Shown one piece after another: positions 1,904 to 19,160 of a stretch of 19,160 nucleotides of DNA. Source of the DNA: a virus (Duplodnaviria; Heunggongvirae; Uroviricota; Caudoviricetes); the IMG/VR virus record IMGVR_UViG_648276647_000017, positions 1-19,160 of that record; one strand, 5' to 3'. How positions within the stretch are numbered: the first letter of the stretch is position 1; each line of letters starts with the position of its first letter. Both the position numbers and the translations under genes were made by a program. The notes under the pieces are model-generated. The model saw only the letters and a program-made list of their open reading frames with translations. It had not been told where the DNA came from and made no database searches.

Positions 1904-1906
1904 GAA

Positions 1907-2349: not shown

Positions 2350-2372
2350 AAAAAAAGTTCGCCATAGCGAAC
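2350..2372 (-). terminator. Candidate intrinsic terminator in the late leader (tR'-like), between Q and the holin
   Basis: On the minus strand: GTTCGC-tatg-GCGAAC (6-bp perfect stem, 4-nt loop) followed immediately by TTTTTTT; about 85 bp upstream of the holin start, the position expected for the terminator that Q-modified polymerase reads through. Confidence 0.45.
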
Positions 2373-2651: not shown

Positions 2652-3086
2652 TCATACCAGCGTAGCGCAGTTTTTGCGTAGCGCACTAATACTTTTTTCA
2701 TCCCTTTGAATTTCGACCTCAGGATCCATCTGAAGGCTCACACCCAGCATGCAGAGACACCCCTCAATGAATCCCTCTGCTACCTGCAACTGCTGGCGGA
2801 TAAATCCTTCAGAACAGCGACGCCGCCGCCCTATCTCACGTTTGCTTAACCCGTAGACGTAGTACAGCATAATGACGTCCAGTTCCTCAGGCTTACGGAC
2901 CTGCTGCAGCCGACAGACGCAAGCATCGATAATCAGGCCATCGTCGTCACAGCAACTCAGCCTGCCAGGCGAGCTGCTGACTACCAGCCCTTTAAATCCC
3001 GCCGCTATTGGAGCCCAGCTCACTGTGGTGTTGCTATCGGCAGCCCATCCACCCCAGCGCTCTAAAACCTGTTGAATATTACGCAT
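2652..3086 (-). CDS. Q: Late-gene antitermination protein Q
   Basis: 144-aa ORF positioned between the replication gene and the lysis cassette; MRNIQQVLERWGGWAA...IAAGFKGL...CCDDDGLIID...YYVYGLS...IEGCLCM resembles the lambdoid Q family (Cys-rich zinc region, conserved ERWG and AAGFKGL). Confidence 0.8.
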   Translation of the reverse strand: MRNIQQVLERWGGWAADSNTTVSWAPIAAGFKGLVVSSSPGRLSCCDDDGLIIDACVCRLQQVRKPEELDVIMLYYVYGLSKREIGRRRRCSEGFIRQQLQVAEGFIEGCLCMLGVSLQMDPEVEIQRDEKSISALRKNCATLV

Positions 3087-3216
3087 AGCTCTGACCTCTA
3101 CGTTTTGCTACGAAAAATTTTTCTGAGAACTACGTCTGTTTATCCGTGGGTGTGGATAACGCAGTTCCGATCCGCATATTGCATGTATCAACATGCAAAA
3201 AGTTGCTAATTCGGAG

Positions 3217-3403
3217 TGGAACCACCTGCCCCCACCTGGAACCACCTTTTCCTAACCTTTCCCTCAATCGACTTATATATATATGGGGTTTCTAGTAGAA
3301 AGGCGGTTCCAGTGGTTCCAGTAGTTCCGCCCCGCTTGCCACAAGGTCTGCAAGGTGGAACCACCTTCTCTTCTAGGTGGTTCCGCGTGGTTCCAGCGGT
3401 TCC
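3217..3403. repeat. Iteron array flanking an AT-rich element; candidate origin of replication
   Basis: Nine copies of the hexamer GGAACC/GGTTCC in both orientations (3218, 3238, 3306, 3314, degenerate 3323, 3357, 3379, 3389, 3398), mostly within extended TGGAACCACC-type units, flanking the run cgacTTATATATATATGG (3269-3286). The array overlaps the 3' end of the primase gene and lies upstream of Q. Confidence 0.5.
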
Positions 3404-5559
3404 CAAACCTTGCATTTTTTCCCCCCAATTCGCCTTTGGGCACGCTTATACCCGCAATTTTGCAAAACATTACTAATTCGCATTTCTTCGCGTTTTCCGA
3501 TGCGGTCAGGATTTAGCCCAATCGCATCACGCAAAACATCACTTGCGCGTAAAAATTCGCAATTTCGCGGAAGTTCATTAGTCATCAGGTCGGGCGTGTC
3601 GAGCCATTTCTCTACCGTTTCAAGCCAAGCATCCTTGATGGTGTACTGTTCATGGACACTCGCTGCCAGTTGTTCAGCCTCACGGAACTGGATACCCCCC
3701 AGACGCTGAAACACCTCACGAGCCTCAGCCCAAAGTAAAAGAAGATCTCTTTTTATCGCTTTCACGTCGACTTTCGACACTTCCACGGGGAGCCAGCGAC
3801 GGTTACCAGTCTTGTCCGCAAGGAATTCGTCCTCATTAGTGGTACCAACGAACACCAGGCGACGAGGAAACTGGGTGGCGAACTCCCGGTATTTCGGGAT
3901 CCAGTTTTCGTGAGTACGCGTCACAAACGCTTTGATTGACTCCAGCTCTTTGGTATTAAGTCCGCGCAGTTCACCAATCTCTGCCACCAGCCGACCACGC
4001 ATTTTTCGAGCGAGATCATCGTCTTTTTCGGCAAAAGAGATTTCAGTAAAAAACGCAGGATCAGGGCTCAGTGCCTCCACTCCGGAAGACTTACCGCAGC
4101 CCTGCGGACCAACGAGGATCGGCACCATATCCGCTTTGATGCCTGGCTCCAGTACTCGCCCCGCCAACGCGGTCCACATGTACATAGACACCGCACGGGT
4201 ATAAGGCGTGTCGGCGGTACCGAAGTGCGTATGGTAGAAACATTCGATGCGCGGCACGCCATCCCACTCCAGTCCGTTCAGCCAGGTGATCGCTGAATCG
4301 AATGGTTGTTCATCGGCTGCAAGTAACACCACATCGCGAATAAGTTCACGACCAACAGGTTTAAATCCCCGCTTTTCCATCGTGATGCGCAGGCGCGCAT
4401 AATCCGCATCGGTGAAGGCCTGCCACTGGCCGGAGCCTGCCTGGGCGAACATGATTTCGTCACGGAACTGGTCAAAGCGAATATCGATGTCCACGAAGTC
4501 AGGACGCACAACGGCTTTTGCCGCGTTGCTGATGGTGGCCTCGATGCGGCCCCATTTGTCGCGCTCGAACGCCGGCAGCGGTAACGGCTCGGCCACTTCG
4601 GTGCTGGTCAGGTCTTCGAAATCGTCGTTGCGGATCCCGATGGCATTAAGGAAATCGCCGTCGTCGCGGTGCGCGCAGCTGGCGTGCAGGCACTTAAAAT
4701 GCCCCTGCTCAAAGCCCGCGGTACCGCCCGGGAAGTAAACCGTGCTCGTCGGGTCGCCGCCGGTGCTGTGGCCGTCTTCGAACGGGCAACGGATATAGCG
4801 CTCGCCGTTCGCGCCGTCCAGCAGCGTCCAGCCATTGGCATCGAGATATTCCGCCGTATCATCCGTGGCGCCGGGCGTGAAGGTTGAACGGTCGCGCATC
4901 TTCGTGCTGCCCGCTTCGGTGGTGACCGACACAGGTAACTGTTCCGCCAGTCGCTGCCACAGCGTTTCAAGCTGCTCACCAGTAATAGCCGGAGGTTCAT
5001 CCGGCAAACCGCCGTCCCATTCGATACGCGCGCCGCTGCTGTGCGTACCGCAGGCAACAAACTGCTGCCCGTTCGCCAGCAGCTCGATAATCCCCATATC
5101 GCCCGCCAGACGGTGGATGCGCTTACGGAAATCGCCGTCAACGGCCAGCAGGTACAGGCATTTGTTACTGTTGGCGCGCCAGCGACGCGGCGGCAGCTCA
5201 CCAAGCAGCTGCACCAGCGTTTTGCGAATATCGGCCTGGATATCTTCGTCTTCGCTGTCGCAGTCCAGCGCCAGCCAGCCATGGCCTGTACGCACGCAGA
5301 TGCCATAATCCGGTTCATTCGACCAGCGGGCAAAATCATGCTCAGTAACAACATGACTGGTCCATTGAGCAATACCGGTGACCTGACGGTCCCGGTTATA
5401 GCGACTTGGCGTCTTACCCAGCGCTTTCAGTTTACTGTCAGGGGATATAGTCGCACCGGGGTTACATACAACTGGGAGAAGATGAGCAGTTCGCCCCAAT
5501 ACCAGGTCGAAATGAAACCACTCATCAGGCGTAGCTCCCCATGGTTTGCTATCAGACAT
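3373..5559 (-). CDS. Bifunctional primase-polymerase / primase-helicase (PrimPol N-terminal domain plus P4-alpha/D5-like P-loop NTPase C-terminal domain)
   Basis: 728-aa ORF; Walker A motif GPQGCGKSS in the C-terminal half, N-terminal region typical of archaeo-eukaryotic-type primase-polymerases of phages and plasmids; AAGG Shine-Dalgarno 7 nt before the ATG; first replication gene downstream of the cro-like gene. Confidence 0.85.
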   Translation of the reverse strand: MSDSKPWGATPDEWFHFDLVLGRTAHLLPVVCNPGATISPDSKLKALGKTPSRYNRDRQVTGIAQWTSHVVTEHDFARWSNEPDYGICVRTGHGWLALDCDSEDEDIQADIRKTLVQLLGELPPRRWRANSNKCLYLLAVDGDFRKRIHRLAGDMGIIELLANGQQFVACGTHSSGARIEWDGGLPDEPPAITGEQLETLWQRLAEQLPVSVTTEAGSTKMRDRSTFTPGATDDTAEYLDANGWTLLDGANGERYIRCPFEDGHSTGGDPTSTVYFPGGTAGFEQGHFKCLHASCAHRDDGDFLNAIGIRNDDFEDLTSTEVAEPLPLPAFERDKWGRIEATISNAAKAVVRPDFVDIDIRFDQFRDEIMFAQAGSGQWQAFTDADYARLRITMEKRGFKPVGRELIRDVVLLAADEQPFDSAITWLNGLEWDGVPRIECFYHTHFGTADTPYTRAVSMYMWTALAGRVLEPGIKADMVPILVGPQGCGKSSGVEALSPDPAFFTEISFAEKDDDLARKMRGRLVAEIGELRGLNTKELESIKAFVTRTHENWIPKYREFATQFPRRLVFVGTTNEDEFLADKTGNRRWLPVEVSKVDVKAIKRDLLLLWAEAREVFQRLGGIQFREAEQLAASVHEQYTIKDAWLETVEKWLDTPDLMTNELPRNCEFLRASDVLRDAIGLNPDRIGKREEMRISNVLQNCGYKRAQRRIGGKKCKVWEPLEPRGTT

Positions 5560-5734
5560 GGGTTAAGCCTTTTTGTTTGACTACATTTTTTTGCTCCAAA
5601 ATCTTTTCAAGTTGAAGAGCTCTTAGCTCTGGGATTTCCTCCCCCCATTGAGATACGGCTCCTTTGGAAACCTTCAATAGTCTCGCTAGTTTCGCTTTAC
5701 TTCCTGCAAGCTCAATTGCTTCTGCTTTTTTCAT
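5552..5734 (-). CDS. Cro-like HTH regulator (Cro/CI-type, YdaS-like)
   Basis: Small ORF divergent from the CI-type repressor; helix-turn-helix region LAGSKAKLARLLKVSKGAVSQW. The track begins at a GTG (5743); the ATG at 5734 (MKKAEAIELAG...) is my preferred start. The 3' end overlaps the primase start. Confidence 0.6.
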   Translation of the reverse strand: MKKAEAIELAGSKAKLARLLKVSKGAVSQWGEEIPELRALQLEKILEQKNVVKQKGLTHV

Positions 5735-5743
5735 ACCCGTCAC

Positions 5744-5847
5744 CCAGGAAATATATGGTTATATGAGGTTAAGAAAACTAAACCCACAAGTCAAGAAAGC
5801 GATACCCTGATTAAGTTAAGCTAACTAAACTATATGAGGGTAAAACC
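5744..5847. promoter_or_regulatory. Immunity-region operator/promoter block between the divergent cro-like and CI genes
   Basis: Two copies of a 16-bp near-palindromic motif, GTTAAGAAAACTAAAC (5768-5783) and GTTAAGCTAACTAAAC (5815-5830), 14/16 identical. On the minus strand a TTGACT -35 (5794..5789) with a 17-nt spacer to TAACCT (5771..5766) overlaps the first copy, consistent with a CI-repressed cro promoter. Confidence 0.5.
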
Positions 5848-6540
5848 ATGATTAATGATCGTATTCGCGAGGCTCGTCGCAATGTCCACCTAACGCAGGA
5901 TGCGCTTGCTAAACGTATTGGTCTAACTAAAGCCACGATTTCACAATGGGAATCCGGAAACACCACACCTAACGGGAAAAATCTTATAAATCTGGCCGAA
6001 GCATTGAACGTTTCTCCAGAGTGGCTACTTTCAGGCAAAACAAGCGATACCAAAGAAATACATTCTAATGCACAAGTTGAGGGGGGGTTTTCTGTATGGG
6101 ACTCATCAACGCCATTAGAGGATGATGAAGTGGAAATACCGTTCTATCAGGAAATTGAACTATCTGCCGGTAATGGTACTTATGTTGATATAGATCGAAT
6201 GGGATGTAAGTTAAGATTCGCCCGTTCAACGTTGCGCAAAGCAGGTGTTGACGTAAATTGTGCGGCTTGTGTCAGCATCCACGGCAACAGCATGGAACCG
6301 GTATTACCAGATGGCGCTGTCGTCGGCATAGATACATCAAAAACAGGTGTAAAAGATGGTCAAATGTACGCTATAGACCAAGACGGATTACTTCGTGTCA
6401 AACTATTGTACCGTCTCCCAAGCGGACTCCGGATACGCTCTTTCAATAGGGATGAATACGCAGACGAAGAGTATTTTAATCAAGAGGCTAATAAAATCAG
6501 GATTATAGGCCAAGTATTTTGGTACTCCGTTCTGCTCTGA
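5848..6540 (+). CDS. cI: CI-type prophage repressor (N-terminal HTH_XRE, C-terminal S24 LexA-like autopeptidase)
   Basis: 230-aa ORF; HTH (LTQDALAKRIGLTKATISQWESG), candidate Ala-Gly cleavage site in ELSAGNG, catalytic Ser in GNSMEP and Lys in LRVKLL; GAGGG Shine-Dalgarno 7 nt upstream; divergent from the cro-like gene. Confidence 0.9.
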   Translation: MINDRIREARRNVHLTQDALAKRIGLTKATISQWESGNTTPNGKNLINLAEALNVSPEWLLSGKTSDTKEIHSNAQVEGGFSVWDSSTPLEDDEVEIPFYQEIELSAGNGTYVDIDRMGCKLRFARSTLRKAGVDVNCAACVSIHGNSMEPVLPDGAVVGIDTSKTGVKDGQMYAIDQDGLLRVKLLYRLPSGLRIRSFNRDEYADEEYFNQEANKIRIIGQVFWYSVLL

Positions 6541-6564
6541 GCGTAAATTCACTCTATACCACAT

Positions 6565-6591
6565 GCCCGCTTCCTAAGCGGGCTTTTCTTT
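6565..6591 (+). terminator. Intrinsic terminator downstream of the CI gene
   Basis: GCCCGCTT-cct-AAGCGGGC (perfect 8-bp stem, 3-nt loop) followed by TTTTCTTT, 25 bp after the CI stop codon. Confidence 0.65.
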
Positions 6592-6629
6592 ACCTATCCG
6601 AAAAAGTTCACTTTTCTTAACTACAACAC

Positions 6630-6685
6630 TTGACTTTGTGAGTTTAGAGGTCTTAACTATATGCGTGAAGTTAAGATATCTATAC
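6630..6685 (+). promoter_or_regulatory. Candidate CI-controlled early promoter (pL-equivalent) with two further operator-like motif copies
   Basis: TTGACT at 6630-6635 with a weak -10 (TTAACT, 6653-6658) at 17-nt spacing; operator-like copies GTTTAGAGGTCTTAAC (6642-6657) and GTTAAGATATCTATAC (6670-6685) share the GTTAAG-N4-CT(A/T)AAC pattern of the cI/cro intergenic sites. Confidence 0.3.
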
Positions 6686-6852
6686 ACAGATATTTAAACT
6701 ACAAGTCGAACGGCGCGACTCTAAACCATGCGTCGGGACCGTGGCGGGACAGGATGTCGGCAATACGGGTCAGTAAGTTCCCTTTGGGGTGCGGCGAAGC
6801 ACTGGGTCGAAGCCGCCGAACCACCAAAGTGAACTGAATGAGGAATCACAAG

Positions 6853-7047
6853 ATGCCTAAATATAAACTGGTTAATGACCTGGCTATCGGCGACAAAATT
6901 GAATTCAGTGGAAAACGGATAATGGAGGTTACCCAAAAAACTGACCGCGACCAGCATAACGTTAGCCTGACTCTAGTTAACAAACATACAGGTTCTGCGA
7001 CTAATACTTGTTTTAACCGAATGGATACCGTCGTCCTTCCCCCATAA
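6853..7047 (+). CDS. Hypothetical small protein (64 aa), stand-alone unit between the immunity region and the early operon
   Basis: ATG at 6853 (MPKYKLVNDLAIGDKIEF...) with a GAGGAA Shine-Dalgarno about 6 nt upstream; the track ORF starts earlier at 6838. Bracketed by the CI terminator upstream and a hairpin plus T-tract downstream. No family recognised. Confidence 0.45.
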   Translation: MPKYKLVNDLAIGDKIEFSGKRIMEVTQKTDRDQHNVSLTLVNKHTGSATNTCFNRMDTVVLPP

Positions 7048-7089
7048 CAATCCTCTGAATCCTCCATGTAATTGCTGTGTGTAGTCTTT

Positions 7090-7117
7090 GCCCGCCTCAA
7101 GTGACGGGCTTTTTTAT
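7090..7117 (+). terminator. Candidate intrinsic terminator after the small ORF
   Basis: GCCCGCC-tcaagt-GACGGGC (7-bp stem with one mismatch) followed by TTTTTTAT. Confidence 0.45.
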
Positions 7118-7141
7118 GTCTGAAAGCGCACTCGCAACAGC

Positions 7142-7324
7142 GTGCTCCCCGATATGAAAAAAGGAATACAACCGATGAAACCTGAACACATCCATCGACT
7201 GACGGGGCGCGATGTTCTCCGTTATCGCCGTAAAAACTTCGATTTGATGACCGGTCTGGCCGTTGCCACTGCGCTCGGTCTGATCATCACTTTCATTCTC
7301 CTTGTAGCGAGGCCCACAGTATGA
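7142..7324 (+). CDS. Hypothetical small tail-anchored membrane protein
   Basis: ORF ending in a single hydrophobic helix (LMTGLAVATALGLIITFILLV); the track start at 7142 is a GTG, alternative ATGs at 7154 and 7175, the latter with an AAGGAA Shine-Dalgarno (49-aa product); stop overlaps the start of the next gene (7321). Confidence 0.4.
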   Translation: MLPDMKKGIQPMKPEHIHRLTGRDVLRYRRKNFDLMTGLAVATALGLIITFILLVARPTV

Positions 7325-8223
7325 GTTTAGAAACCAGTCTAGAACTTAATAATCAACTTCTGGCACAACATAATGCGCTGCTTGAACGTCTTATCCGCAC
7401 AATGGCATCAGGCATTGTTATGCATCCTGACACGATTTCACGAGTGCAGGAATGTCGGGATACAGCAACTGAAACTGAAAATATGTCAGCGGCAATGACA
7501 CTGGATGATCTGGAGTTCAGCGACGTTATCGCACTGGCTGGTTTCTACCCGGTAGCCACCCCTATCACAGAAGACATGCTGCAACGTGCTGTTGCCTACC
7601 GTGATGCTGAAGGCGATAAACGAGTAGTTCAGATTGATGCTCTCGACAGCGCATTGCAGGGCGTCAAACGAGCCAGGGCGCTGCTTAAACCTGCTCTCCT
7701 GGACCTGTCCCGTAACATCCTTAAGTTCTGGGACGACCTGCCAACCATCGGCGAGCGACGTGCTTTTGCCGAGCAGCTACTTGATGCACCTGCGGATGGG
7801 CGTGATGAAGTTAAGCCGAAAAAGGCCAGTAACAAGGATGGAGAACGCACGGGGCCGTTTTACGTCAAAAATGTATCCGGCACAGCAGCCAGTGAACTCC
7901 ACACCTTACGCAAGTTGAACGAGATGCTGAAAAAAGGCCATATCGAGATCAACCGTGTTGAGTACCTTCAGCTGCAGGAAGAATTTGCACGCAGAGACGC
8001 AGCAAATTCCAGCCAGAATAATGACGCCAAAGATGACCATACAATTGATTTCGCGGCACTACGCAAACAAGCTGAAGGGTTGATCCTCCAGTTAGCAAAA
8101 GGGGGTTACCGGGCAGAAGCTATTGCAATTCTGGAAAAACAGGGAGCCAGGAAACTTGGTGAAGTAACGGATGAAAATCTCGCTGAAGTAATCACCCTGG
8201 CTGAAAAAGCACTGGAGGGTTAA
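7321..8223 (+). CDS. Hypothetical phage protein (300 aa), first large gene of the plus-strand early operon
   Basis: Long ORF, translationally coupled to the neighbours on both sides (4-bp overlap upstream, 2-bp gap downstream); acidic and helical, no recognisable catalytic motif. Confidence 0.55.
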
Positions 8224-8225
8224 TC

Positions 8226-9527
8226 ATGCCAGACGTTCATGCACAACTTTCTCCATCATCAGCGCATCGATGGATGCGCTGCCCAGGAAGTCTGGCGCTG
8301 GAGGCCACACAACCGGATAAAGAAACAACTTTTGCAATCGAGGGCACTGCAGCGCACGCGCTTGCTGAAAAAGTTCTACGAAACAGGCAAAGCCACCCGG
8401 AACACTACGCCGGATGCAATGTTTCTATGTTTCTCGGCTCATACCCCCTTCGCGAAAATCCTGATGATACATCTGGCCCACAGGTGGATGATGAAATGGT
8501 CGAAGCCGTTGGCCGGTATGTTGATACGGTCTGGACTCTTGCACAGAATAATGAACTATTGGTTGAACAACGTGTTGATTTCTCACATATAACGGGTGTG
8601 GAAGAATCTTTCGGAACTGCCGACGGCATAATCATCGCTGGTAACGAATTACAAATCCACGACCTGAAATATGGCAAAGGCGTCCGCATTGATGCAGAAC
8701 AAAATGAGCAACTACAACTGTATGCTCTGGGTGCGCTTGAACAATTCAGCATGCTGTATGACTTTGAAACTGTAAGATTATTTATTCACCAACCAAGGCT
8801 CAACCACGTTTCAGAATGGTCGTTAACCGTACAGGAACTTCAGTCTTTCGGTGAACGGGCGCTGGAGGCCGCAACCAGTGCGATCCTTGTTCTCAATATT
8901 GCTGAATGCGAAGGCATTGAGACACTACCGCTGGAAAACTTCATACCTGGAGAAAAACAGTGCCGCTTCTGTAAAGCAAAAGCTATTTGCACTGCCCATA
9001 AAATGCAGCATTTACAAACAGCGGCCAGCGATTTTGAAGATCTGACAAAGCCTGTCAGCGAAATAATCACCAATGCCAGCGCACGTGTACCTCTGTTAAC
9101 CATTGAGCAGCTTGCGGAGATCTATAGTCAGGCCGACTTTATTGAATCCTGGCTAAAGGCAGTACGGGACCGGGTTCACAATGAACTCAATGCCGGACAT
9201 CCGGTACCGGGGTTTAAACTGGTAACAGGAAAACAAGGTAACCGGGCCTGGAGTGATGAAGAGGCAGCTCGCGCACTTCTGAAGGACCAGTTCAGGTACA
9301 AAACTGAAGAAGTATTCGACTTTAAACTTATTAGTCCCACAAAAGCCGAAAAACTTATCAAAAAGGCCAGTCCGCGCCGTTGGTCAAAAGTCGAGGCACT
9401 GATAACACGAGCTGATGGTAAACCAACCGTCGTTCCCGAGTCAGACCCACGCCCCGCACTCAATATCAACCCTGTAAATGATTTCGACGACGTATCCGAC
9501 GATACGCTAACCGCAGACCTCATCTGA
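8226..9527 (+). CDS. DUF2800-family PD-(D/E)XK nuclease (Cas4/RecB-like, with C-terminal Cys cluster)
   Basis: 433-aa ORF; N-terminal [15 protein letters not shown] signature, nuclease core around [20 protein letters not shown], Cys cluster [10 protein letters not shown]; typical partner of DUF2815 and phage PolA. Confidence 0.8.
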
Positions 9528-9542
9528 TTTAAGGAAATACCC

Positions 9543-10091
9543 ATGAAACTGAAGCTGAACAATGTTCGTCTGGCCTTCCCGTCTCTGTTTGAAGCTAAAA
9601 CTGTAAACGGCGAAGGCGATCCACGTTTCTCCGCAGTATTTTTAATGTCACCCAAACACCCACAACTGGAAGAAATCCGTAAAGCTATGAAGCAGGTAGC
9701 GAAGGAAAAATGGGGAGAGAAGTGGGAGCCCATTTATAACCAGCTGGAGAAAAAACTCAATCTGTGCCTGCATGATGGTGATGAAAAAGCAGAGTATGAA
9801 GGCTTCCCCGGTAATTTCTTCCTGAATGCTGCTAACAAAGCGCGCCCAGCTGTTCTTGATCGCGATCGTTCGCCACTTATTCAGGCTGACGGACGTCCCT
9901 ATGCAGGGTGCTATGTAAACGCCGTTATCGATATCTGGGCACAGGACAATAATTTCGGTAAACGCATTAATGCCTCACTCGGCGGAGTCCAGTTCCTGCG
10001 AGACGGCGATGCATTCGCTGGCGGCGGAGTGGCAAGCGCTGACGATTTCGACGATATCAGCGAAGGTGCTGATGCTGAAGCACTAATTTAA
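9543..10091 (+). CDS. DUF2815-family protein (phage single-strand DNA-binding-like)
   Basis: 182-aa ORF; MKLKLNNVRLAFPSLFEAK start and acidic C-terminal tail (DDFDDISEGADAEALI) characteristic of this SSB-like family; immediately follows the DUF2800-like nuclease. Confidence 0.75.
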   Translation: MKLKLNNVRLAFPSLFEAKTVNGEGDPRFSAVFLMSPKHPQLEEIRKAMKQVAKEKWGEKWEPIYNQLEKKLNLCLHDGDEKAEYEGFPGNFFLNAANKARPAVLDRDRSPLIQADGRPYAGCYVNAVIDIWAQDNNFGKRINASLGGVQFLRDGDAFAGGGVASADDFDDISEGADAEALI

Positions 10092-10142
10092 AAATATTCA
10101 TCCCCCAGCTACGTGCTGGGGTATCTCATGAGGGAAAGTATA

Positions 10143-10784
10143 ATGTCACAGCCCGTATTAACTAATCACCTTAAAACTCAAATCATCAATAACGCACTTG
10201 AGAAAGCGGGTATTCCCAAACGTAAATCAGCACTACGAGCTGCTCGTGTTGAATGGGCCGAACGTGTTCGGCTTGCAGCTATCGGGGGCGTAGAGAAAGA
10301 AGCTGAAATATTAAAAAATATAAAAAAGATTGAATCCATGGTCACAAAAGTCCCTGATTCATTAAAAACCAATAGTTCTTTAATTCGAAAAGATTGCTGC
10401 ATATATCTCAATCTGGCTGGAGCCAGAGCAAACATTTATTTCAATGGCAACTACAGAGGTTATGAATCAGGAGCCCCCGAGCATATTAATAAAATAGCAC
10501 CTGCAGAATTTACTCTACTTGGCGAAGATCCTCTGGTAACGGAGTTTTATAGCTTTGATGCTCTCTACACACAAATTAAAAGTGATGAAACCGAAATCAT
10601 ACAGAACGTCAGCGCGGCTCTAAATAAAGTTCGGACAGTAAAACGATTACTGGATGTATGGCCCGAAGCTAAAGAGCTGCTTCCAACAGACGCACCGCCA
10701 GTCCCTTTAGCACCAGCAGTACATCGAGAGACATTAAATGAAATGATAGGCCTTCCTACCAATACAGTGTCTGATACTCAATAA
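10143..10784 (+). CDS. Hypothetical protein (213 aa), AT-rich accessory gene
   Basis: ATG at 10143 (MSQPVLTNHL...) preceded by GAGGGA about 7 nt upstream; the track start at 10113 is a GTG lying inside a hairpin. Markedly AT-richer than the flanking replication genes; no family recognised. Confidence 0.5.
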   Translation: MSQPVLTNHLKTQIINNALEKAGIPKRKSALRAARVEWAERVRLAAIGGVEKEAEILKNIKKIESMVTKVPDSLKTNSSLIRKDCCIYLNLAGARANIYFNGNYRGYESGAPEHINKIAPAEFTLLGEDPLVTEFYSFDALYTQIKSDETEIIQNVSAALNKVRTVKRLLDVWPEAKELLPTDAPPVPLAPAVHRETLNEMIGLPTNTVSDTQ

Positions 10785-11467
10785 CAAGGGGGATGCTTAT
10801 TATATGATTTTGAACGTTTTACAATCTCGTTAAGAGGCGTGAAATCAAAATCTCTGAATAACACATCAGGATACTTCGCTCTTGCTTTATCCAGCAAACC
10901 AGTTAAAGTATTTTTTGTGTTACCCAACATTGTATTAACCGCCACTACATGTCTAATTTCTGGAGGTTTATCTATACCACCAGAAATTGCTTCATTAAGA
11001 ACCGACGCCAGTGGGGTTTGTCCCTTACTTGTTGAATCCCACAGCGTCATTAACAGACGAGCTGCGTCTATAAATAGCTTTTTGTCAGCATTTGGCTTGA
11101 CAGTAATACCGGAACTACCTGAGCCAGAACCGGAACGTTCTATTGCTGCACTGGCATCCGATTTCATAGGATTAAATAACGGAAGCTCTGTACAACCGAT
11201 ACGCCGAATGAAATCCTTTGCAACATCTCTACCACAGAAAAAAGCCCCTGTACAATTTTCATCAGAGCGTTTTTTAAATGAAAAACAATAGTACTGATCG
11301 GTTAACGGATAACCGGAATAACTGGTTTTAGTTTGTCCAGTAATAAGTTTCAGGTGTGCAACAGGCTGAATAATAAAATCCCGAACTATCGCATCTTTTA
11401 TGTCGTTACCACGGTGACAATAATATTCAGGTAATCCATTAGGCTGTCTCTTATTACCCACAGTCAT
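10778..11467 (-). CDS. Hypothetical protein (229 aa), AT-rich accessory gene antisense to the replication operon
   Basis: Minus-strand ORF whose 3' end overlaps the previous gene by 7 bp (convergent); Cys/aromatic-rich N-terminal domain (YYCHRGN...QYYCFSF...NCTGAFFCGRD), a GSGSGSSG linker and a distinct C-terminal domain; no family recognised. Confidence 0.55.
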   Translation of the reverse strand: MTVGNKRQPNGLPEYYCHRGNDIKDAIVRDFIIQPVAHLKLITGQTKTSYSGYPLTDQYYCFSFKKRSDENCTGAFFCGRDVAKDFIRRIGCTELPLFNPMKSDASAAIERSGSGSGSSGITVKPNADKKLFIDAARLLMTLWDSTSKGQTPLASVLNEAISGGIDKPPEIRHVVAVNTMLGNTKNTLTGLLDKARAKYPDVLFRDFDFTPLNEIVKRSKSYNKHPPCY

Positions 11468-11528
11468 TAGTTGTCTCCTTTAATTCATGATATCTAGCAT
11501 TTAACCATATACCATATGAGGATATTTT

Positions 11529-13592
11529 ATGTCCAATATACTATGGGGCGACCTGGAAACCTATTGTGACATTCCGATCAACAACGGTACCCATGCGTAT
11601 GCCGAAGGCGTTGAAGTGATGCTTTTCGCATGGGCTATCAACGACGGGCCAGTAAACGTGTGGGATATCACTGCCGGTGGTGGTATTCCACACGGCTTAT
11701 ACGAAGCAATCGCAGATCCTGAAACCCTGCTTTATTTCCATAACTCTCACTTCGACCGCACCGTTCTGCGTTATGCAATGCCGCGACTGGCACCGCCAGT
11801 CGAACGTTGGCGCGACACGATGGTGCAGGCGCTGGCGCACGGTCTCCCGGGGTCTCTGGGAGAACTCTGCGAAATACTAGGCGTCCCGCAAGACAAAGCG
11901 AAGGACAAAGAAGGTAAAGCGCTGATCCAGCTGTTCTGTAAGCCACGCCCGAAAAACAGCAAACTGCGTCGGGCCACCAGCAAAACCCACCCAGAAGAAT
12001 GGCGGCGCTTTGTTGCTTACGCCGGACTGGATATCGAGGCAATGCGCGAAGTCTGTAAACGTCTGCCGAAGTGGAATTATCAAGGGACAGAGCTGGCGCT
12101 CTGGCATCGTGATCAGCAGATCAACGACCGGGGCGTCTGCATGGACATGCAACTCGCGCGCGCTGCGATCGAAGCGGTAGACCAGGAGCAAAAGCGCCTG
12201 GCAAAGCGTACACAGGAAATGACTGATGGCGAAGTGCAGGCAGCCACACAACGAGACGCGTTGATTAAGCACATTGTTGAATCCTACGGTGTGGAGCTAC
12301 CAGACATGCAACGCAGTACTCTGGAACGTCGTATTGCCGACCCCGATTTACCATCTGCCGTGAAAGAACTGCTGGCTATCCGACTGCAGGCCAGTACTAC
12401 CAGCACCAGTAAATACAAGGCACTGATGAAAGGCGTAAGCCACGACGGGCGCTTACGCGGTACGCTACAGTTCTGCGGGGCGTCACGTACCGGTCGTTGG
12501 GCCGGACGGCTATTCCAGCCCCAGAATCTTCCCCGCCCTTCACTAAAACAGGAACAAATAGACGAAGGCATCGAAGCACTGAAAGCCGGATGTGCAGACC
12601 TGCTGTTTGACAATATCATGGAACTAACCAGTTCAGCGTTACGTGGCTGCATTATCGCGCCAACAGGCAAAAAAATGGTGGTAAGTGACTTGTCGAACAT
12701 TGAAGGCCGTATGCTGGCATGGCTGGCAGGAGAAGAATGGAAACTGAATGCATTCAGAGAGTACGACGCCGGAACGGGTCCGGACTTATATAAACTGGCG
12801 TATGCAAAAGCTTTCGATATTGCACCAGATGATGTTGATAAACACATGCGTCAGATCGGTAAAGTCATGGAACTCGGTCTGGGTTATGGTGGTGGTGTGT
12901 CGGCCTTCATCACTTTTGCACTGGTTTACGGTCTCGATCTCGACGAGCTGGCAAACGCTGCACTGCCAAACATTCCCCGCGATGTTATCCGCGAGGCGAA
13001 AAGCTGGTACGGCGAATCGGTTAAACGTAAGTCAACCTACGGCCTTTCTGAACGGGTATTTATCGCCTGCGACTCACTTAAACGTCTCTGGCGCCGGGCG
13101 CATCCCGCGACCTGTGATTTCTGGTACGAACTGGAGCGCACCGTCCGCACTGCAATCGCCACACCGCAAAAAACATTGTATTGCGGTTATCTTAAAATCC
13201 GCCGCGATGGCGCGTGGCTGCGCATACAGCTACCATCCGGACGCGCTGTATGCTACCCGTCTCCGGTTATCGAAAAAGGGAATATCACCTACATGGGTGT
13301 TAACTCTTATTCGCGTAAATGGCAACGACTCAAAACCTACGGCGGAAAGCTGGTGGAGAACGTCACCCAGGCGGCCGCCCGCGACGTTCTGGCCGGAAAC
13401 ATGCCGCTTATCGAAGATGCCGGTTACAGCATTGTGCTGACGGTACACGACGAGGTGATCACCGAATCACCTGACACAGAAGATTTCAACGATAAAGCGC
13501 TTTCCGCGCTTCTCTCCACTAACCCCGAATGGGCGCCCGATATCCCACTGAACGCTGGCGGTTTTGAGGCGTACCACTACCGTAAGGATTAA
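11529..13592 (+). CDS. Family A DNA polymerase (phage PolA with N-terminal 3'-5' exonuclease domain)
   Basis: 687-aa ORF; Exo I motif (WGDLETYCD), polymerase motif A ([19 protein letters not shown]), motif B ([16 protein letters not shown]), motif C (VLTVHDEV); GAGGA Shine-Dalgarno upstream. Confidence 0.9.
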
Positions 13593-13597
13593 CTCCT

Positions 13598-13813
13598 ATG
13601 TCATTTAAATACCGGGATAATCCACTTTATTACAGGGCTGCAAGGGAGGCTTTGCGACTTGAACAATCCGGCGAATATGACCGGGCAGCGAAGGTCTGGG
13701 CAAAAGCCAACCGCGAATCACATCACGAACTGAATCAGGAATGGAGTGAACGCCGGTCTGAATTTTGTCTGATGCAGAACATGCGCGAAAAGCGTAAGGC
13801 GGTCGAAGAATGA
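13598..13813 (+). CDS. Small regulator-like protein, possibly PerC/Pch family
   Basis: 71-aa ORF translationally coupled to PolA; AAREALRLEQSGEYDRAAKVW resembles the LE..GL.RRAA..W core that I recall for PerC-family activators. Family assignment is tentative. Confidence 0.45.
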   Translation: MSFKYRDNPLYYRAAREALRLEQSGEYDRAAKVWAKANRESHHELNQEWSERRSEFCLMQNMREKRKAVEE

Positions 13814-14070
13814 TGCGTAATACAGCGAAACTACAACTGGGGTTCTCCCCGCTATCCAAAAAGATCATGTTGGCAAAAATGCGCGATGTTGACGGCGGTC
13901 GCTTGCGAGTTGGCAATGACCCTGGGCGTGACGTAACGAACGAAGCCGCGCAGTTAGTTTGGCAACTGGTAATGGCAGAAGGCGGCGAAATTAGCTGGGG
14001 TCTTGATGATGGTAGCCAGATGGTACTGAGGGCTGAAAAGCAGGTGTGGAATGATGGCCTACGAACGTGA
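13810..14070 (+). CDS. Hypothetical small protein (86 aa)
   Basis: ORF with ATGA start/stop overlap to the upstream gene and a 20-bp overlap with the downstream VRR-NUC gene; no family recognised. Confidence 0.4.
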   Translation: MMRNTAKLQLGFSPLSKKIMLAKMRDVDGGRLRVGNDPGRDVTNEAAQLVWQLVMAEGGEISWGLDDGSQMVLRAEKQVWNDGLRT

Positions 14071-14347
14071 AAGCCTTATCGAAAAGCACCTCGTCGCCGA
14101 AGTGAAAAAGGCTGGCGGGGTCGCCTTTAAGTTCGTGTCACCCGGTCGCCGCTCGGTACCGGATCGCATTGTCCTGCTACCCGGCGGTCGCATCGTCTTT
14201 GTCGAATGCAAAGCGCCAGGCAAACCACCACGGCCTGACCAGTTACGCGAGCACGAACGGCTGCGTGCGCTGGGCTTTACCGTGGTGGTATTAGATAGCA
14301 AAAATCTGGAGGGGATATTGTGCGGGGAGCCTATTACAACGAAATAG
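14051..14347 (+). CDS. VRR-NUC domain nuclease (PD-(D/E)XK fold)
   Basis: 98-aa ORF; core PDRIVLLPGGRIVFVECKAPG supplies the D...E.K catalytic pattern typical of VRR-NUC proteins; AGGTG Shine-Dalgarno upstream. Confidence 0.8.
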   Translation: MMAYERESLIEKHLVAEVKKAGGVAFKFVSPGRRSVPDRIVLLPGGRIVFVECKAPGKPPRPDQLREHERLRALGFTVVVLDSKNLEGILCGEPITTK

Positions 14348-15348
14348 ACCCTAACGCAGCACAATGGCTGCGTAACCTTATTGCTGCAGGTCATATCGCC
14401 CCGGGTGAAGTTGATGAAAGGAGTATCGAAGATGTCGCACCAGACGACTTGCGCGGATTCACACAGTGCCATTTCTTCGCCGGGATCGGCGTCTGGTCTT
14501 ATGCTCTGCGTCTGGCCGGATGGCCGGATAACAAACCGGTCTGGACAGGAAGTTGCCCGTGCCAGCCTTTCAGCTCGGCTGGTAAAGGCGCTGGGTTTGA
14601 TGACGAGCGGCACCTATGGCCAGCACTATTCCACCTCATCAGCGAGCGACGCCCTAAGCTGGTATTTGGCGAACAGGTTGCGGGAGTCAATGCCTGGTTC
14701 GATCTTGTACAAACTGACGTGGAAGCAGTGGACTACGCCTTTGGGCTTGTCCCGTTTCCGGCTGCGGGCGTCGGTGCCCCGCATATCCGAGATAGAGCGT
14801 ATTGGGTGGCCGACGCCAGCGGCGAGCGATCACAGCGGTGGCGAAAGCGCCTCAATAGCATTGAGGAAGATGTCTGGAGATCGTCGACCGTCCGGCAACA
14901 CGCTACACAGCTCCCTGCGGAATTTTGCTCACCTGGCGGGGTGGTACACCCCAACCTGCAACACAAACCCACAGCCGGAGACAAAACGCGGTCTAGAAAC
15001 CTTAGCGGGACTATCCAGATTAGCGGGATGGCCGACAGTGACGACGATCGACAACAACCAAGTTCGTGCCGAGGGCGCAGCGGCCAATCATACCGAACGG
15101 GGAACGACCCTCGGCGGCGCTGCGAGAATCTGCGGCCCAATACGATTAACGGCTTCTGGGATGGTGCTGACTGGCTCCTCTGCCGGGATGGTCGCTGGCG
15201 GCCAGTTGAATCCGGCACATGCCCGTTGGCTAATGGGATTACCTCCAGAGTGGGACGACTGCGCGCCTACGGCAACGCGATAGTCGCACCAGCTGCCGCA
15301 ACATTCATCCGCTCGTTTATGGAATGCGCAGGATACGACCTTATTTAA
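14320..15348 (+). CDS. DNA cytosine-5 methyltransferase (Dcm-like), apparently split across two reading frames
   Basis: GTG start at 14320 with a strong GGAGGGG Shine-Dalgarno. Frame 1 carries C5-MTase motifs ([27 protein letters not shown]) and a C-terminal motif-X-like [12 protein letters not shown]. The overlapping frame-2 ORF (14381-15283) carries GWPTP-type repeats and [17 protein letters not shown]. Confidence 0.65.
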
Positions 15349-15665
15349 TGCCACTCACATCTGGCATGATACCGTCCAGAAGGTAATTGCTTATATACAA
15401 CGGAGCCGCCCATGGCATAAGTATAAGCATGAAGTTTTGTCCAGAAGTCCCCATAAACTAGTATTGGGGCTAAAAATTTTGGATCGCTAACCATAGATGT
15501 AGCAGGAAGCTCGAAACCTTTAGAAAGAATGTTTACCAGTGAAGGGTAATTTTCAAAATCAGTGCTATTCCCGCCCACCTCTAAAGCATCCAGTTCAAAG
15601 TCGAGCACTCCACCATTTTTGTAATACTCCGAAACAGTTAACCCTGATGTTAACAAAGTAGCCAT
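15345..15665 (-). CDS. Hypothetical protein (106 aa), AT-rich antisense gene between the methyltransferase and the helicase
   Basis: ATG at 15665 with a strong AGGAGG Shine-Dalgarno 8 nt upstream; AT-rich body; 3' end overlaps the methyltransferase stop by 4 bp (convergent); start codon 34 bp from the divergent SNF2 helicase start. Confidence 0.55.
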   Translation of the reverse strand: MATLLTSGLTVSEYYKNGGVLDFELDALEVGGNSTDFENYPSLVNILSKGFELPATSMVSDPKFLAPILVYGDFWTKLHAYTYAMGGSVVYKQLPSGRYHARCEWH

Positions 15666-15699
15666 TAAACAATCCTCCTGAATTTTAAAGGGTTACATT

Positions 15700-17094
15700 A
15701 TGCCCAAAGTTTTCACGCCTCGCCCCTACCAAGATCTAATTATCAACCACGAAATCGACATTCACCGCTGCAACATCTGGGCAGGGATGGGGATGGGTAA
15801 AACCGTAGCGACACTCACCACGCTGGAAGATCTTTTCATGGCGGGCTCAGAGACACAGCCCGCGCTGGTCCTCGCGCCGCTACGCGTTGCAGCAAGCACA
15901 TGGCCGGATGAAGCGCTGAAATGGGGGCATCTGCGCAATATCGAGGTGCAGCCGATTGTTGGTAACGCCAAAGCGCGCTCTGCAGCGCTGGCGAACAGCA
16001 ACGCGAGCGTGTTCACCATCAACTACGATAACCTTGTCTGGCTGGTTGAGGAATTGGGAGAACGATGGCCGTTCGGTACTGTCATTCCAGATGAAAGCAC
16101 CCGGCTAAAATCCTTCCGGCTGCGAGGTGGTGGTAAGCGCGCGGCGGCGCTGGGCAAAGTGGCGCATAAGTATGTCCAGCGCTGGATAAATCTCACCGGT
16201 ACGCCAGCACCGAACGGCCTGGTAGATTTGTGGGGACAATTGTGGTTTGTGGACCAGGGGCAACGTCTCGGGCGCACTTACGGCGCGTTTACCTCACGCT
16301 GGTTCAACTCGATACAGTTTCCGGGGCAGAGCTGGACCAAACTGGAGCCGTTTGCTCACTCACAGGCTGAAATACAGCGAGCGTTAGCCGATGTGACCCT
16401 CTCGCTGGATGCGGCCGACTGGTTCGATATCAAAGACCCCATCCATAACGTAATCCGCGTGGATATGCCGCCGAAGGCCCGTCAGCAGTATCGTGAAATG
16501 GAAAAGGAAATGTTCCTCGAGCTGAATGGCGAAGGCATCGAAGCACCAAACGCCGCGGCAAAGACACTGAAGTGTCTGCAAATCGCCAGTGGCGCAGTAT
16601 ACACAGACGACACCGGAAGTTGGTCAGAACTGCATGACACCAAACTGCAGGCGCTGGACAGCATACTGACCGAAGCAGCTGGCGCACCTGTGCTGGTTGC
16701 TTATCACTGGAAACACGATCTTGAACGCTTGCTTAAAGCATTCCCTCGCGGTCGTCACCTCGACCAAGATCCACAGACACTGCGCGACTGGAATTCCGGA
16801 AAGATTCCTGTTCTCTTTGCACACCCAGCCAGCGCGAGCCACGGTCTGAACATGCAGGACGGCGGAAACATACTGGTATTTTTCTCACACTGGTGGGACC
16901 TGGAGCAGTATCAGCAAATTATTGAACGTATCGGCCCCACCAGGCAGATACAGGCCGGACACAATCGTCCGGTATTTATTCACCACATTATTGCGGCCGA
17001 CACTATGGACGAAATGGTGATGGAGCGGCGCAACTCAAAACGAACAGTGCAGGACATCCTGCTCAATGCCATGAAAAAGAGAGGTATAGCATGA
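15700..17094 (+). CDS. SNF2-family (DEAD/DEAH-like) helicase
   Basis: 464-aa ORF; PRPYQ Q-motif, Walker A GMGKT, DEST box (IPDESTRLKS), motif III-like LTGTPAPNG; AAGGG Shine-Dalgarno upstream. Confidence 0.85.
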   Translation: MPKVFTPRPYQDLIINHEIDIHRCNIWAGMGMGKTVATLTTLEDLFMAGSETQPALVLAPLRVAASTWPDEALKWGHLRNIEVQPIVGNAKARSAALANSNASVFTINYDNLVWLVEELGERWPFGTVIPDESTRLKSFRLRGGGKRAAALGKVAHKYVQRWINLTGTPAPNGLVDLWGQLWFVDQGQRLGRTYGAFTSRWFNSIQFPGQSWTKLEPFAHSQAEIQRALADVTLSLDAADWFDIKDPIHNVIRVDMPPKARQQYREMEKEMFLELNGEGIEAPNAAAKTLKCLQIASGAVYTDDTGSWSELHDTKLQALDSILTEAAGAPVLVAYHWKHDLERLLKAFPRGRHLDQDPQTLRDWNSGKIPVLFAHPASASHGLNMQDGGNILVFFSHWWDLEQYQQIIERIGPTRQIQAGHNRPVFIHHIIAADTMDEMVMERRNSKRTVQDILLNAMKKRGIA

Positions 17095-17291
17095 GCGAGA
17101 AACCCGACGATTTACTCACCCCAGATGAAGTATGCCAAAAGTTAGGTATTACACAGAAAACGCTATGTGAGTGGAATATTAAGCATCGTCATCGGGCTAT
17201 CCTGGCACCAATTCGTTTCAGTGCAAAAGTAGTTCGTTATGAGCGCCGAAATGTCGACGCTTTTATTCAAAAATGTCGCAGCCAGTATTAA
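17091..17291 (+). CDS. AlpA/excisionase-like HTH protein (candidate Xis)
   Basis: 66-aa ORF; LLTPDEVCQKLGITQKTLCEW helix-turn-helix typical of AlpA-family prophage regulators and excisionases; lies next to the integrase with a 4-bp convergent overlap. Confidence 0.65.
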   Translation: MSEKPDDLLTPDEVCQKLGITQKTLCEWNIKHRHRAILAPIRFSAKVVRYERRNVDAFIQKCRSQY

Positions 17292-18685
17292 CCTCGCCGC
17301 CGTAGCAATGCCACCTGCGCAAGTATGCTCCGCTCGTGAGCCTCGAAAGCTTCGCGCTTCAACGCAATCTCTTCCTGTAAAATCTCATCAGAAAAGTCGT
17401 AATGTTCTGCCATCGGGTCATCTGACTTGCTGGAGTGGTGAAGGCAAAGGAGGCTGATTTCCCTTCGGTCTGAGCGGGAATAGCCTCTTTCCTTCATCAA
17501 GGCAATAACATTGCTCTTAAGGAATTTACGGCACATCGTATTAAATGCACCGTCTTTCCCTTTAACAGTCCCATCATGTTTTATTCCTTTTACAGCCCCG
17601 TCCGGGCTGTATGTTTTCACCAGCTTATCCAGTGATCGTTTTGAAAATGGCTGCATTGGATCACGTGGCTGCAAAAATACATAATCCCTGTTGCACTCAG
17701 GAACTGAATCACGCCAGGCTTTCTGCTCGTCGATAATCCGCCGGATCTCAGGCGTTATCGGCAGGCGGAAAGCCTTTTGTGTTTTCATAGCCCCTCGCAT
17801 GCCGATAACCCCTTCCGGATAAACAATTTCACCAGCCTCCTCGTGAACGTAGTCCCAGCGCAGGTTATGGACATTAATCGGACGAACACCAGTGATGATC
17901 ATGAAGCGAACAGCATTCTTCTGGTGTACAGAGGTGCAGGCAGCAACATTGAGCCAGAGTCGGGCGATTGATTCAATATCGGTAAAAAGCCGTGTGGGGG
18001 TAGGTTTCTGTACGCGGGAGGAAACATAATCATCTGGCAGACTGGCGGCAACATTGCGGCCGTTGCAAAGAGTAGGTGCGCAGAACTTCCAGAACCGACG
18101 GAGCTCGGCAAACAACTCCAGGGCGTTATTGTTCGAGCGAGTGGCGATCCACTCGTCCAGCACTTCCACCAGCCGACTGTATGTTACGTCGCTGAACACC
18201 TCGCGCTCGCCGAACGTTGATTTAATCCGGTCGATACGCACCCCGTAGGTTGTGAAACTGTCCGGGCTCAGCTTCTGACGGGCTACTTTGGCTTTGAGGT
18301 CATCCCGGTACATTTCCAGCGCTGCATGTACGGACTCTGCCCGCAGTCCACCGTCAGCCATACCTAGTGCTTTTTCGCGCGCCAGCTGGATAGCGAGCTC
18401 CGGCCACTCGCCGAGCTTTTTACCTTTGAGGCCCATCTTTTTTGGAAACTCGGCGTAAAATGTAACCTTACCGGCTTTGCTGAAATCGATACGGAGATAG
18501 TTCTCTTTTTCATATTTGGAACGGCGAGCCACGCCGGAAGCAGCGAGGATGATTTTGGCGGCAGCAACACAGATTTTCATGTGTGCGCTGGTATAGGGGG
18601 GTTTACAGGCGTCCCATTTTTCAGAAGCGGCTAAAACATCGTCATTATTGGGGCTATCCGGATTATGTGTTACAGTGCGCGGCAT
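17288..18685 (-). CDS. int: Tyrosine-type site-specific integrase
   Basis: Large ORF at the prophage edge with an arm-binding-like N-terminal region (YLRIDFSKAGKVTFYAEF...LGEWPELAIQLAREKA) and a C-terminal catalytic domain. The track start (18691) is a TTG; the ATG at 18685 has an AAGGA Shine-Dalgarno; an internal ATG at 18580 is an alternative start. Confidence 0.85.
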   Translation of the reverse strand: MPRTVTHNPDSPNNDDVLAASEKWDACKPPYTSAHMKICVAAAKIILAASGVARRSKYEKENYLRIDFSKAGKVTFYAEFPKKMGLKGKKLGEWPELAIQLAREKALGMADGGLRAESVHAALEMYRDDLKAKVARQKLSPDSFTTYGVRIDRIKSTFGEREVFSDVTYSRLVEVLDEWIATRSNNNALELFAELRRFWKFCAPTLCNGRNVAASLPDDYVSSRVQKPTPTRLFTDIESIARLWLNVAACTSVHQKNAVRFMIITGVRPINVHNLRWDYVHEEAGEIVYPEGVIGMRGAMKTQKAFRLPITPEIRRIIDEQKAWRDSVPECNRDYVFLQPRDPMQPFSKRSLDKLVKTYSPDGAVKGIKHDGTVKGKDGAFNTMCRKFLKSNVIALMKERGYSRSDRREISLLCLHHSSKSDDPMAEHYDFSDEILQEEIALKREAFEAHERSILAQVALLRRRG

Positions 18686-18890
18686 TCTCAATCCTTATCT
18701 GCGTAGGCGCAGAAAACAAGCTCACACATACAAGTCTTTTCTACGGGACAAAATGCAATGTGTTGCGGTTTTGTGTTGCTGGACTGAGTTTATCAAGGTT
18801 AAATACACTGGATCAACATACAGTAAGTTAATGACAGTAAAGCATACAAACTCGATACAACTTACTGATTTTAAAATGATTTAACGGTAA

Positions 18891-19160
<270 letters not shown>

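Follow-up and report, generated by a model that had tools for sequence, protein, structure and literature searches.

We examined a 19,160-nt stretch of phage DNA (Caudoviricetes; IMG/VR record IMGVR_UViG_648276647_000017, positions 1 to 19,160; referred to here as the window), which derives from a prophage of E. coli, and focused on a cytosine methyltransferase locus in which two long reading frames of the same strand overlap. The two overlapping genes together probably specify one two-subunit DNA (cytosine-5) (C5) methyltransferase: alpha, the catalytic large-domain subunit read in frame 1, and beta, read in the +1 frame (frame 2) from a gene that lies wholly within that of alpha. A first-pass annotation had described the locus as a methyltransferase split across two frames and had offered a frameshifted pseudogene, assembly errors or programmed recoding in explanation. 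Its description was borne out: both frames are open for more than 900 nt (frame 1, 14320-15348; frame 2, 14348-15283), and the catalytic motifs and motif X of frame 1, like the repeats and C-terminal motif of frame 2, were all located where it had placed them (Table 1). As detailed below, its three explanations fared less well.

In the proposed arrangement alpha would be the catalytic, S-adenosylmethionine-binding large domain, with motifs I-VIII at its N-terminus and motif X at its C-terminus. The two motif groups would be joined by a linker of ~105 residues whose sequence would be irrelevant, although translation through it would be required. Beta would be translated from its own internal Shine-Dalgarno sequence and ATG on the messenger RNA of alpha, and would supply the content that a single-chain enzyme has between motifs VIII and X: a small hairpin domain at the N-terminus, W-x-T-P modules, three to four in number and presumed to be the target-recognition part, and a motif-IX-like C-terminus. 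Alpha and beta would then associate, as in M.EcoHK31I, to methylate phage and host DNA, and the enzyme would serve as an orphan, anti-restriction-type methylase within the prophage replication module. From sequence comparison we infer that both proteins are produced and bind each other, that beta recognizes the target and that the complex is active.

Two overlapping open frames in the methylase gene

Frame 1 contains no stop codon between 14299 and 15345, and its open reading frame (ORF) encodes 342 amino acids (aa) from a GTG start. Frame 2 is free of stops from 14348 to 15280 (open to 15283), and the ORF listed for it, 14381 to 15283, encodes 300 aa. The third frame of the methylase region contains 22 stops. 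When the frame-1 codons were shuffled, the +1 frame acquired 7.3 stops on average, and only 0.14% of shuffles left it open over 311 codons or more.

Three complete E. coli chromosomes match the 1029-nt methylase region with 100% identity, and 35 of 5426 complete genomes carry it at 95% identity or more. In the E. coli RefSeq records inspected, alpha is an intact 'DNA cytosine methyltransferase' coding sequence that carries no pseudogene label, and beta is unannotated. Alpha has at least 8000 homologues and beta at least 5000, among which gene callers have chosen frame 1 or frame 2 inconsistently.

Table 1. Features of the methylase locus and of the control ORF, in window coordinates.
Feature	Position	Strand	Basis or remarks
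alpha gene, C5 cytosine methyltransferase large-domain subunit	14320..15348	+	ORF; PF00145; RefSeq WP_001213771.1
beta gene, 283 aa from ATG 14432, wholly within alpha	14432..15283	+	ORF; tblastn; PHROG 1008; frame-2 codon periodicity
beta start site: AAGGAG (14418-14423), 8-nt spacer, ATG (14432-14434)	14418..14434	+	within alpha codons for ERSIEDV
alpha-only zone	14320-14540	+	frame-1 third positions ~1.0-1.2 bits versus 0.1-0.4; beta residues 1-35 free
first doubly constrained zone, ~255 nt	14537..14791 (entropy map 14545-14800)	+	frame-1 third-position entropy falls to 0.4-0.8
beta-only zone	14815..15129 (entropy map 14800-15120)	+	frame-2 position 3 most variable; alpha amino acids unconserved
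second doubly constrained zone, ~105 nt	15130..15253 (entropy map 15130-15235)	+	low variation at all codon positions
alpha-only zone	15235-15348	+	frame-1 third positions free again
alpha motif I, HFFAGIG	14470-14499	+	sequence
alpha motif IV, SCPCQPFS (PCQ), residues 78-85	14551-14574	+	sequence
alpha motif VI variant, FGEQV (EQV for ENV)	14665-14685	+	sequence
alpha motif VIII variant, APHIRDR (HIRDR for QxRxR)	14776-14808	+	sequence
alpha motif X (YGNAIV) and C-terminal helix	15268-15309	+	frame 1 constrained alone
beta WTTP	14729-14740	+	frame 2
beta WPTP	14807-14818	+	frame 2
beta WYTP	14942-14953	+	frame 2
beta WPTV	15029-15040	+	frame 2
beta motif-IX-like segment, residues 258-274	15203-15253	+	hhalign profile match
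106-aa ORF convergent with methylase, 4-nt overlap with its stop	15345-15665	-	ORF list
antisense ORF, 184 aa	14059-14613	-	opposite methylase gene
antisense ORF, 161 aa	14733-15218	-	opposite methylase gene
230-codon ATG-started ORF, +1 in DNA polymerase gene (11529-13592)	12748..13440	+	codon shuffle; tblastn

The two-frame layout is conserved

We measured open frames directly in a viral set of 86 loci, consisting of 80 IMG/VR contigs, the remainder being reference phages and E. coli. In 85 of the 86 the +1 frame was open for 690-1062 nt, with the third frame open for just 102-510 nt, at protein identities of 52-60% for alpha and 42-54% for beta. A tblastn search with the frame-2 translation returned 233 phage records (135 at ≥80% coverage and 35-49% identity), and the matches coincided in their coordinates with those of frame 1. 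The hosts represented include Burkholderia, Klebsiella, Pseudomonas, Ralstonia, Xanthomonas and Rhodobacter, and phage N15 also carries a match. Scanning bacteria at one genome per species revealed 365 stretches encoding a frame-2 relative. When the best 80 of these were examined, the beta match was nested in the +1 frame of an ORF with PCQ upstream and GN near its end in 78, and these 78 loci cover alpha-, beta- and gammaproteobacteria. The layout also occurs in a phage of Firmicutes: gp51 of Paenibacillus phage Rani lies +1 inside the methylase gp50, is annotated as 'g50 Internal gene' and matches the frame-2 family profile with an hhalign probability of 97.9% (E = 7e-13).

Across the viral and genome loci compared, no indels were found between the prophage locus and its homologues. 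The first-pass annotation had allowed that intact homologues might carry the same motif order in a single continuous frame; no relative did so, and just the distant actinophage enzymes discussed below are single-frame. A plasmid search returned matches only in phage-plasmids and megaplasmid prophages and no restriction-modification context, as judged from the feature names under the matches, with neighbouring genes outside its scope.

Three loci depart from the two-frame rule. In the IMG/VR contig L086 beta is interrupted midway by a single stop, and frame 1 is interrupted in two bacterial genomes (L218 and L228); these may be decaying copies or errors. In addition, four database ORFs (P0014, P0015, P0017 and P0018) are chimeras in which frames 1 and 2 are fused at four different points, namely after alpha residue 125, 136 or 159, or on return from frame 2 to frame 1 between GWPT and SDDD. 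Each has 1-6 member sequences, and one of the four ORFs comes from a 5.5-Mb assembly. The chimeras probably reflect sporadic indels or sequencing errors; with no stops in either frame, the resulting ORFs remain open. We considered them as evidence of recoding and rejected this, since all the junctions differ and each is rare.

Both frames are under purifying selection

To map constraint, we aligned the codons of 20-22 representatives sharing ~50-60% identity, once with frame 1 as the guide and once with frame 2, and computed the entropy at each position. Purifying selection acted on the protein product of each frame within particular segments of the gene (Table 1). In the first doubly constrained zone, beta residues 36-120, comprising a helix and a beta-hairpin, lie over alpha motifs IV-VIII. 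The beta-only zone holds the W-x-T-P repeat modules, and in the second doubly constrained zone the motif-IX-like C-terminus of beta (15203-15253) overlaps a conserved alpha block (15148-15216). In the family consensus, which for alpha was taken from an alignment of 82 homologues, alpha has no conserved residues from ~166 to 270, and conservation in beta runs from around residue 38 through the C-terminus. The first-pass annotation had reasoned that an intact enzyme would seem to pass from frame 1 to frame 2 at ~14800 and possibly back near 15260. The constraint does shift near 14800 and 15240, but a single frame-switching product is unlikely, for reasons given below.

Shuffling the frame-2 codons of the beta-only zone gave an expectation of ~3 frame-1 stops, with a probability of finding none of 0.002-0.18 per genome. 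No frame-1 stop was present in this zone in any of 18 diverged representatives, and the third frame contained 3-13. Frame 1 is thus kept stop-free through roughly 110 codons in which its amino acids are not conserved, which argues that alpha is one continuous chain with a linker that is open but free in sequence.

The internal start of beta is conserved

The start of beta lies within the alpha codons for the peptide ERSIEDV (GAA AGG AGT ATC GAA GAT GTC). We analysed codon use at this site in 80 unique homologous genes that contain this peptide. The ATG of beta was kept in 77 of the 80, and GGAG was found upstream in 67. The synonymous choices made by alpha at the start site also differed from those made gene-wide: arginine was encoded by AGG or CGG in 84% versus 36%, serine by AGT in 75% versus 12%, and aspartate by GAT in 99% versus 41%. 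The internal start of beta is thus conserved. Alternative starts in the frame, which is open from 14348, are TTG at 14381 and ATG at 14414.

Alpha resembles a methyltransferase large domain

PF00145 matched alpha with an E value of 1.7e-12 (47.8 bits; cutoff 22), and alpha aligned to residues 74-171 of M.HhaI, which span motifs IV-VIII. The motifs FAGIG, PCQ, EQV, HIRDR and YGNAIV were invariant or nearly so in the 82 homologues, with Y317, G318, N319 and A320 invariant. In an AlphaFold2 model built with these homologues, the predicted local distance difference test score (pLDDT) was 85-95 for residues 1-165 and ~85 for the C-terminal helix that follows YGNAIV (residues 323-337); residues 186-289 were disordered (pLDDT ~34). 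Foldseek searches with residues 1-165 of this model gave M.HhaI (E = 6e-7), M.HaeIII and DNMT2 as top matches, with E values up to 1e-4 over ~167 columns. Alpha is predicted by this model to have the Rossmann-type fold of a methyltransferase large domain.

Neither motif IX nor a target-recognition domain (TRD) was found in alpha, where residues ~166-270 are unconserved in the consensus of the 82 homologues and predicted to be disordered by AlphaFold2. Among the features that define the PF00145/Dcm family, alpha has the Pro-Cys motif and motifs I, VI, VIII and X; a TRD and motif IX are absent from the same chain.

Beta matches the small-domain part of single-chain enzymes

No family for beta exists in Pfam or NCBIfam. 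PHROGs families for beta do exist (PHROG 1008) and are labelled 'DNA methyltransferase'. In the AlphaFold2 model of beta, a helix and hairpin at residues 70-115 formed the sole part with a pLDDT of ~80-85. W-x-T-P modules numbered from 1 to 5 per beta in the homologues counted.

In actinophage enzymes such as Estave1 gp75, LLPTP repeats, EWMMGWPAGW and GNGVVP are all found in one frame. By hhalign we compared alpha and beta with a profile of the C-terminal half of these enzymes (alignment A3, 72 sequences). Beta residues 258-274 matched motif IX of the actinophage enzymes with a probability of 88.6% (E = 2.7e-6), and the W-P-T-P repeats of beta matched the LLPTP repeats (E = 2e-3). Together with a match of the alpha C-terminus to motif X, which is weighed below, the three A3 matches are collinear and complementary. 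In canonical C5 methyltransferases, as seen in M.HhaI structures, the large domain is formed by motifs I-VIII together with X, and the small domain by the TRD and motif IX. Taken with the A3 matches, this make-up suggests that alpha is the counterpart of the large domain, and beta that of the small one.

Many of the actinobacterial and actinophage relatives of the C-terminal half of Estave1 gp75 (P0241-P0360) are just 100-280 aa long and are named 'DNA methylase', as in ByChance, Phanphagia and Poenanya. Short contigs account for some of these proteins; in other cases the enzyme may be naturally divided between two genes that do not overlap.

A chance open frame in the DNA polymerase gene

As a negative control we analysed a long ATG-started ORF in the +1 frame of the DNA polymerase gene of the same window (Table 1). 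This ORF had a codon-shuffle P value of ~0.0008 and gave tblastn matches in Yersinia, APSE and other phages. It was nevertheless broken by 1-7 stops in 47 of 67 close relatives whose polymerases are 86-99% identical, and third-position diversity of the polymerase gene was equal inside and outside the ORF. As a candidate second nested gene it was rejected, since the frame is not maintained in close relatives, and the ORF is due to chance. A chance ORF can thus have tblastn matches, and translated similarity of an alternative frame is by itself insufficient evidence. The case for the methylase accordingly rests on tests beyond translated similarity. What speaks decisively against chance is that distant homologues keep the methylase +1 frame open.

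Alternative explanations

That the locus is a frameshifted pseudogene or the product of assembly errors, with the second frame a mere remnant, is next to inconceivable. Indels do occur in this gene, as the chimeric ORFs attest, but these are rare and their junctions differ. Three independent complete genomes contain the prophage sequence without change, and 35 have it at 95% identity or above, which disposes of an assembly error; a pseudogene is contradicted by the absence of indels relative to homologues, by the intact RefSeq coding sequence and by the preservation of both frames across phyla (85 of 86 viral and 78 of 80 bacterial loci, at only ~45-55% protein identity). It is also highly improbable that frame 2 is untranslated and owes its openness and similarity to composition or to a nucleotide-level constraint such as RNA structure. 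The polymerase ORF likewise gives distant tblastn matches although it is not maintained; however, it gains stops in 47 of 67 relatives, whereas the methylase +1 frame remains open at ~50% identity. Over 14792-15120, moreover, variation peaks at frame-2 third positions in a segment where the frame-1 amino acids are unconserved, and the Shine-Dalgarno sequence and ATG are conserved.

Programmed recoding would generate one chimeric enzyme through two frameshifts, +1 near 14800 and -1 near 15260. It would account for the change of frame in the constraint map near these two positions and would restore the order I-VIII, TRD-IX and X of the single-chain actinophage enzymes. We consider it improbable all the same. 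One read-through path has no need of the ~255-nt and ~105-nt doubly constrained zones, of a conserved beta start (Shine-Dalgarno sequence and ATG) lying ~370 nt upstream of where the shift would occur, or of a frame 1 that stays open through the unconserved linker and on to 15348. Motif IX (15203-15253) and the alpha block leading up to motif X (15148-15267) share the same DNA, so that no single path contains both. No slippery site was found at the junctions: the gene contains no homopolymer of 5 nt or longer, and none of its four XXXYYYZ heptamers falls within 14790-14830 or 15250-15290. A review of frameshifting lists no case of a DNA C5 methylase. Unlikely, but to be taken seriously, is the proposal that beta is a real translated protein other than a methyltransferase subunit, with a separate role overprinted on the methylase gene, for instance as a regulator that binds DNA, as a factor against restriction or other defences, or as an accessory in replication. 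In favour of this, beta lacks a Pfam or NCBIfam family, a relative in the PDB and a confident fold, its motif IX match is short, and overprinted viral genes are often of unrelated function (PMC8227390). Against this, beta occurs nested in this methylase family alone among the viral and genome loci compared, and alpha lacks both motif IX and a conserved segment between motifs VIII and X. The IX-like and PTP-repeat segments of beta map collinearly onto precisely this VIII-X part of single-chain enzymes, and M.EcoHK31I provides a direct precedent.

The two-subunit methyltransferase thus remains the probable reading, and several observations weigh against it. Neither the single beta sequence nor its profile retrieved a PDB relative, giving chance matches only; the AlphaFold2 model of beta was poor (pLDDT 61; predicted template modelling score 0.29), and Foldseek searches with it returned nothing below an E value of 0.28. 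The assignment of motif IX to beta is a profile match of 17 residues, and the match of alpha residues 310-336 to actinophage motif X is weak (E = 0.05). PF00145 detected neither C-terminal motif, even in an in-silico chimera of the alpha N-terminus, the beta TRD/IX part and alpha motif X; the profile never passes its position 160, whether in the chimera, in C-terminal fragments or in a true single-chain actinophage enzyme. The beta start varies by lineage: N15, K1ind1 and some metagenomic contigs have no Shine-Dalgarno sequence or ATG at this site. Such lineages must start beta elsewhere, which fits the lack of constraint on beta residues 1-35. The likeness to M.EcoHK31I is one of architecture as described in PMC2836561; in that account the TRD of M.EcoHK31I is in alpha, whereas at the prophage locus the matching part of alpha lacks conservation and is predicted to be disordered, and the repeat modules are in beta. 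For the prophage locus and its phage homologues alike, expression, interaction and methylation are predicted from sequence.

Gene neighbourhood

The locus lies in a replication module with the gene order DNA polymerase, small regulator, DUF7446, VRR-NUC nuclease, methyltransferase, small convergent ORF, SNF2 helicase and integrase. The last 28 nt of the upstream VRR-NUC gene (14051-14347) also belong to the methylase, which begins with its GTG at 14320; this overlap (14320-14347) suggests translational coupling inside the replication module. The small convergent ORF downstream is AT-rich (41% GC versus 58% in the methylase), and in a related prophage of E. coli 2011C-4251 its slot is occupied by a different gene of 930 nt. 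This interval, flanked by the methylase and the SNF2 helicase, has the look of a variable 'moron' position. The two long antisense ORFs opposite the methylase gene (Table 1) are probably a by-product of GC-rich DNA that avoids stops in two sense frames.

Implications

We tentatively suggest, as a possibility that falls short of an even chance, that the family is a detachable pair, in which a constant catalytic alpha is combined with a recognition beta encoded in the +1 frame of the DNA for alpha's sequence-free tether. If so, specificity could evolve through gain and loss of modules in beta while catalysis is left untouched, and the pair, at ~850 nt, would rank with the longest same-strand overlaps that are deeply conserved in bacteria and phages, one that annotation pipelines would be missing systematically.

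The E. coli records inspected lack a conserved protein of ~283 aa, as many prophage annotations probably do, and two open frames at such loci risk a wrong verdict of pseudogene or sequencing error. There are also consequences for the use of orphan methylases, for example in anti-restriction protection of phage or plasmid DNA. Recoding would destroy beta and its internal ribosome-binding site, so a codon-optimized gene would probably fail, as would the cloning of alpha alone. The locus is a clean natural instance of long dual coding, with separate singly and doubly constrained segments and an open, sequence-free linker, and should be useful in studies of overlapping-gene evolution. Its relevance lies in this long and deep overlap, in its having been missed by annotation and in what it means for cloning and recoding methylases.

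Comparison with known systems

The closest described system is M.EcoHK31I of E. coli HK31 (Lee, Kam & Shaw 1995, via PMC2836561). It is a C5 methylase of two polypeptides, alpha with motifs I-VIII as well as X, and beta with motif IX, whose association is needed for activity (PMC2836561). Its beta, of 176 aa, is encoded wholly inside the alpha gene in another frame and can initiate at internal methionine codons (PMC2836561). As in that account, the beta ORF at the prophage locus lies wholly inside alpha, here in the +1 frame (85 of 86 and 78 of 80 loci), and motifs I-VIII and X belong to alpha and motif IX to beta, motif IX being here a moderate match over a short segment. Unlike the M.EcoHK31I beta as reported there, the beta described here is ~283 aa long; and M.EcoHK31I is presented as part of a restriction-modification system, whereas no restriction enzyme lies next to the prophage gene, an orphan.

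Phages K1ind1 (ORF29/ORF28), K1ind2 ('Mte8-like') and Rani (gp50/gp51) similarly have a +1 ORF inside a methylase gene, with homologous products. These nested ORFs are annotation calls only, and their beta proteins are 230-265 aa long with fewer W-x-T-P modules. The single-chain actinophage enzymes, such as Mycobacterium phage Estave1 gp75 and Gordonia phage Gudmit gp58, share PCQ, ENV-type and QxRxR-type motifs, LLPTP and motifs IX and X with the locus. Unlike it, they carry all motifs in one frame and one polypeptide, and the N-terminal hairpin domain of beta is unrecognisable in them.

M.AquI, reportedly described by Karreman and de Waard in 1990, is said to be a C5 methylase naturally split into two polypeptides at one point in the variable region, with motifs I-VIII in alpha and IX-X in beta, encoded by consecutive ORFs with a short overlap. 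The gene described here differs from M.AquI in being fully nested and in having motif X in alpha. In phage lambda Rz/Rz1, one gene likewise lies wholly inside another in the +1 frame, and both proteins work as a single complex, the spanin that acts in lysis. Its proteins and function are unrelated to those of the methylase, and the embedded Rz1 gene is much shorter. Our literature search turned up no analysis of the nested arrangement for this family of phage methylases. The kind of system is nonetheless one that has been known since M.EcoHK31I in 1995, and the nested ORF has already been called by a few phage annotators.

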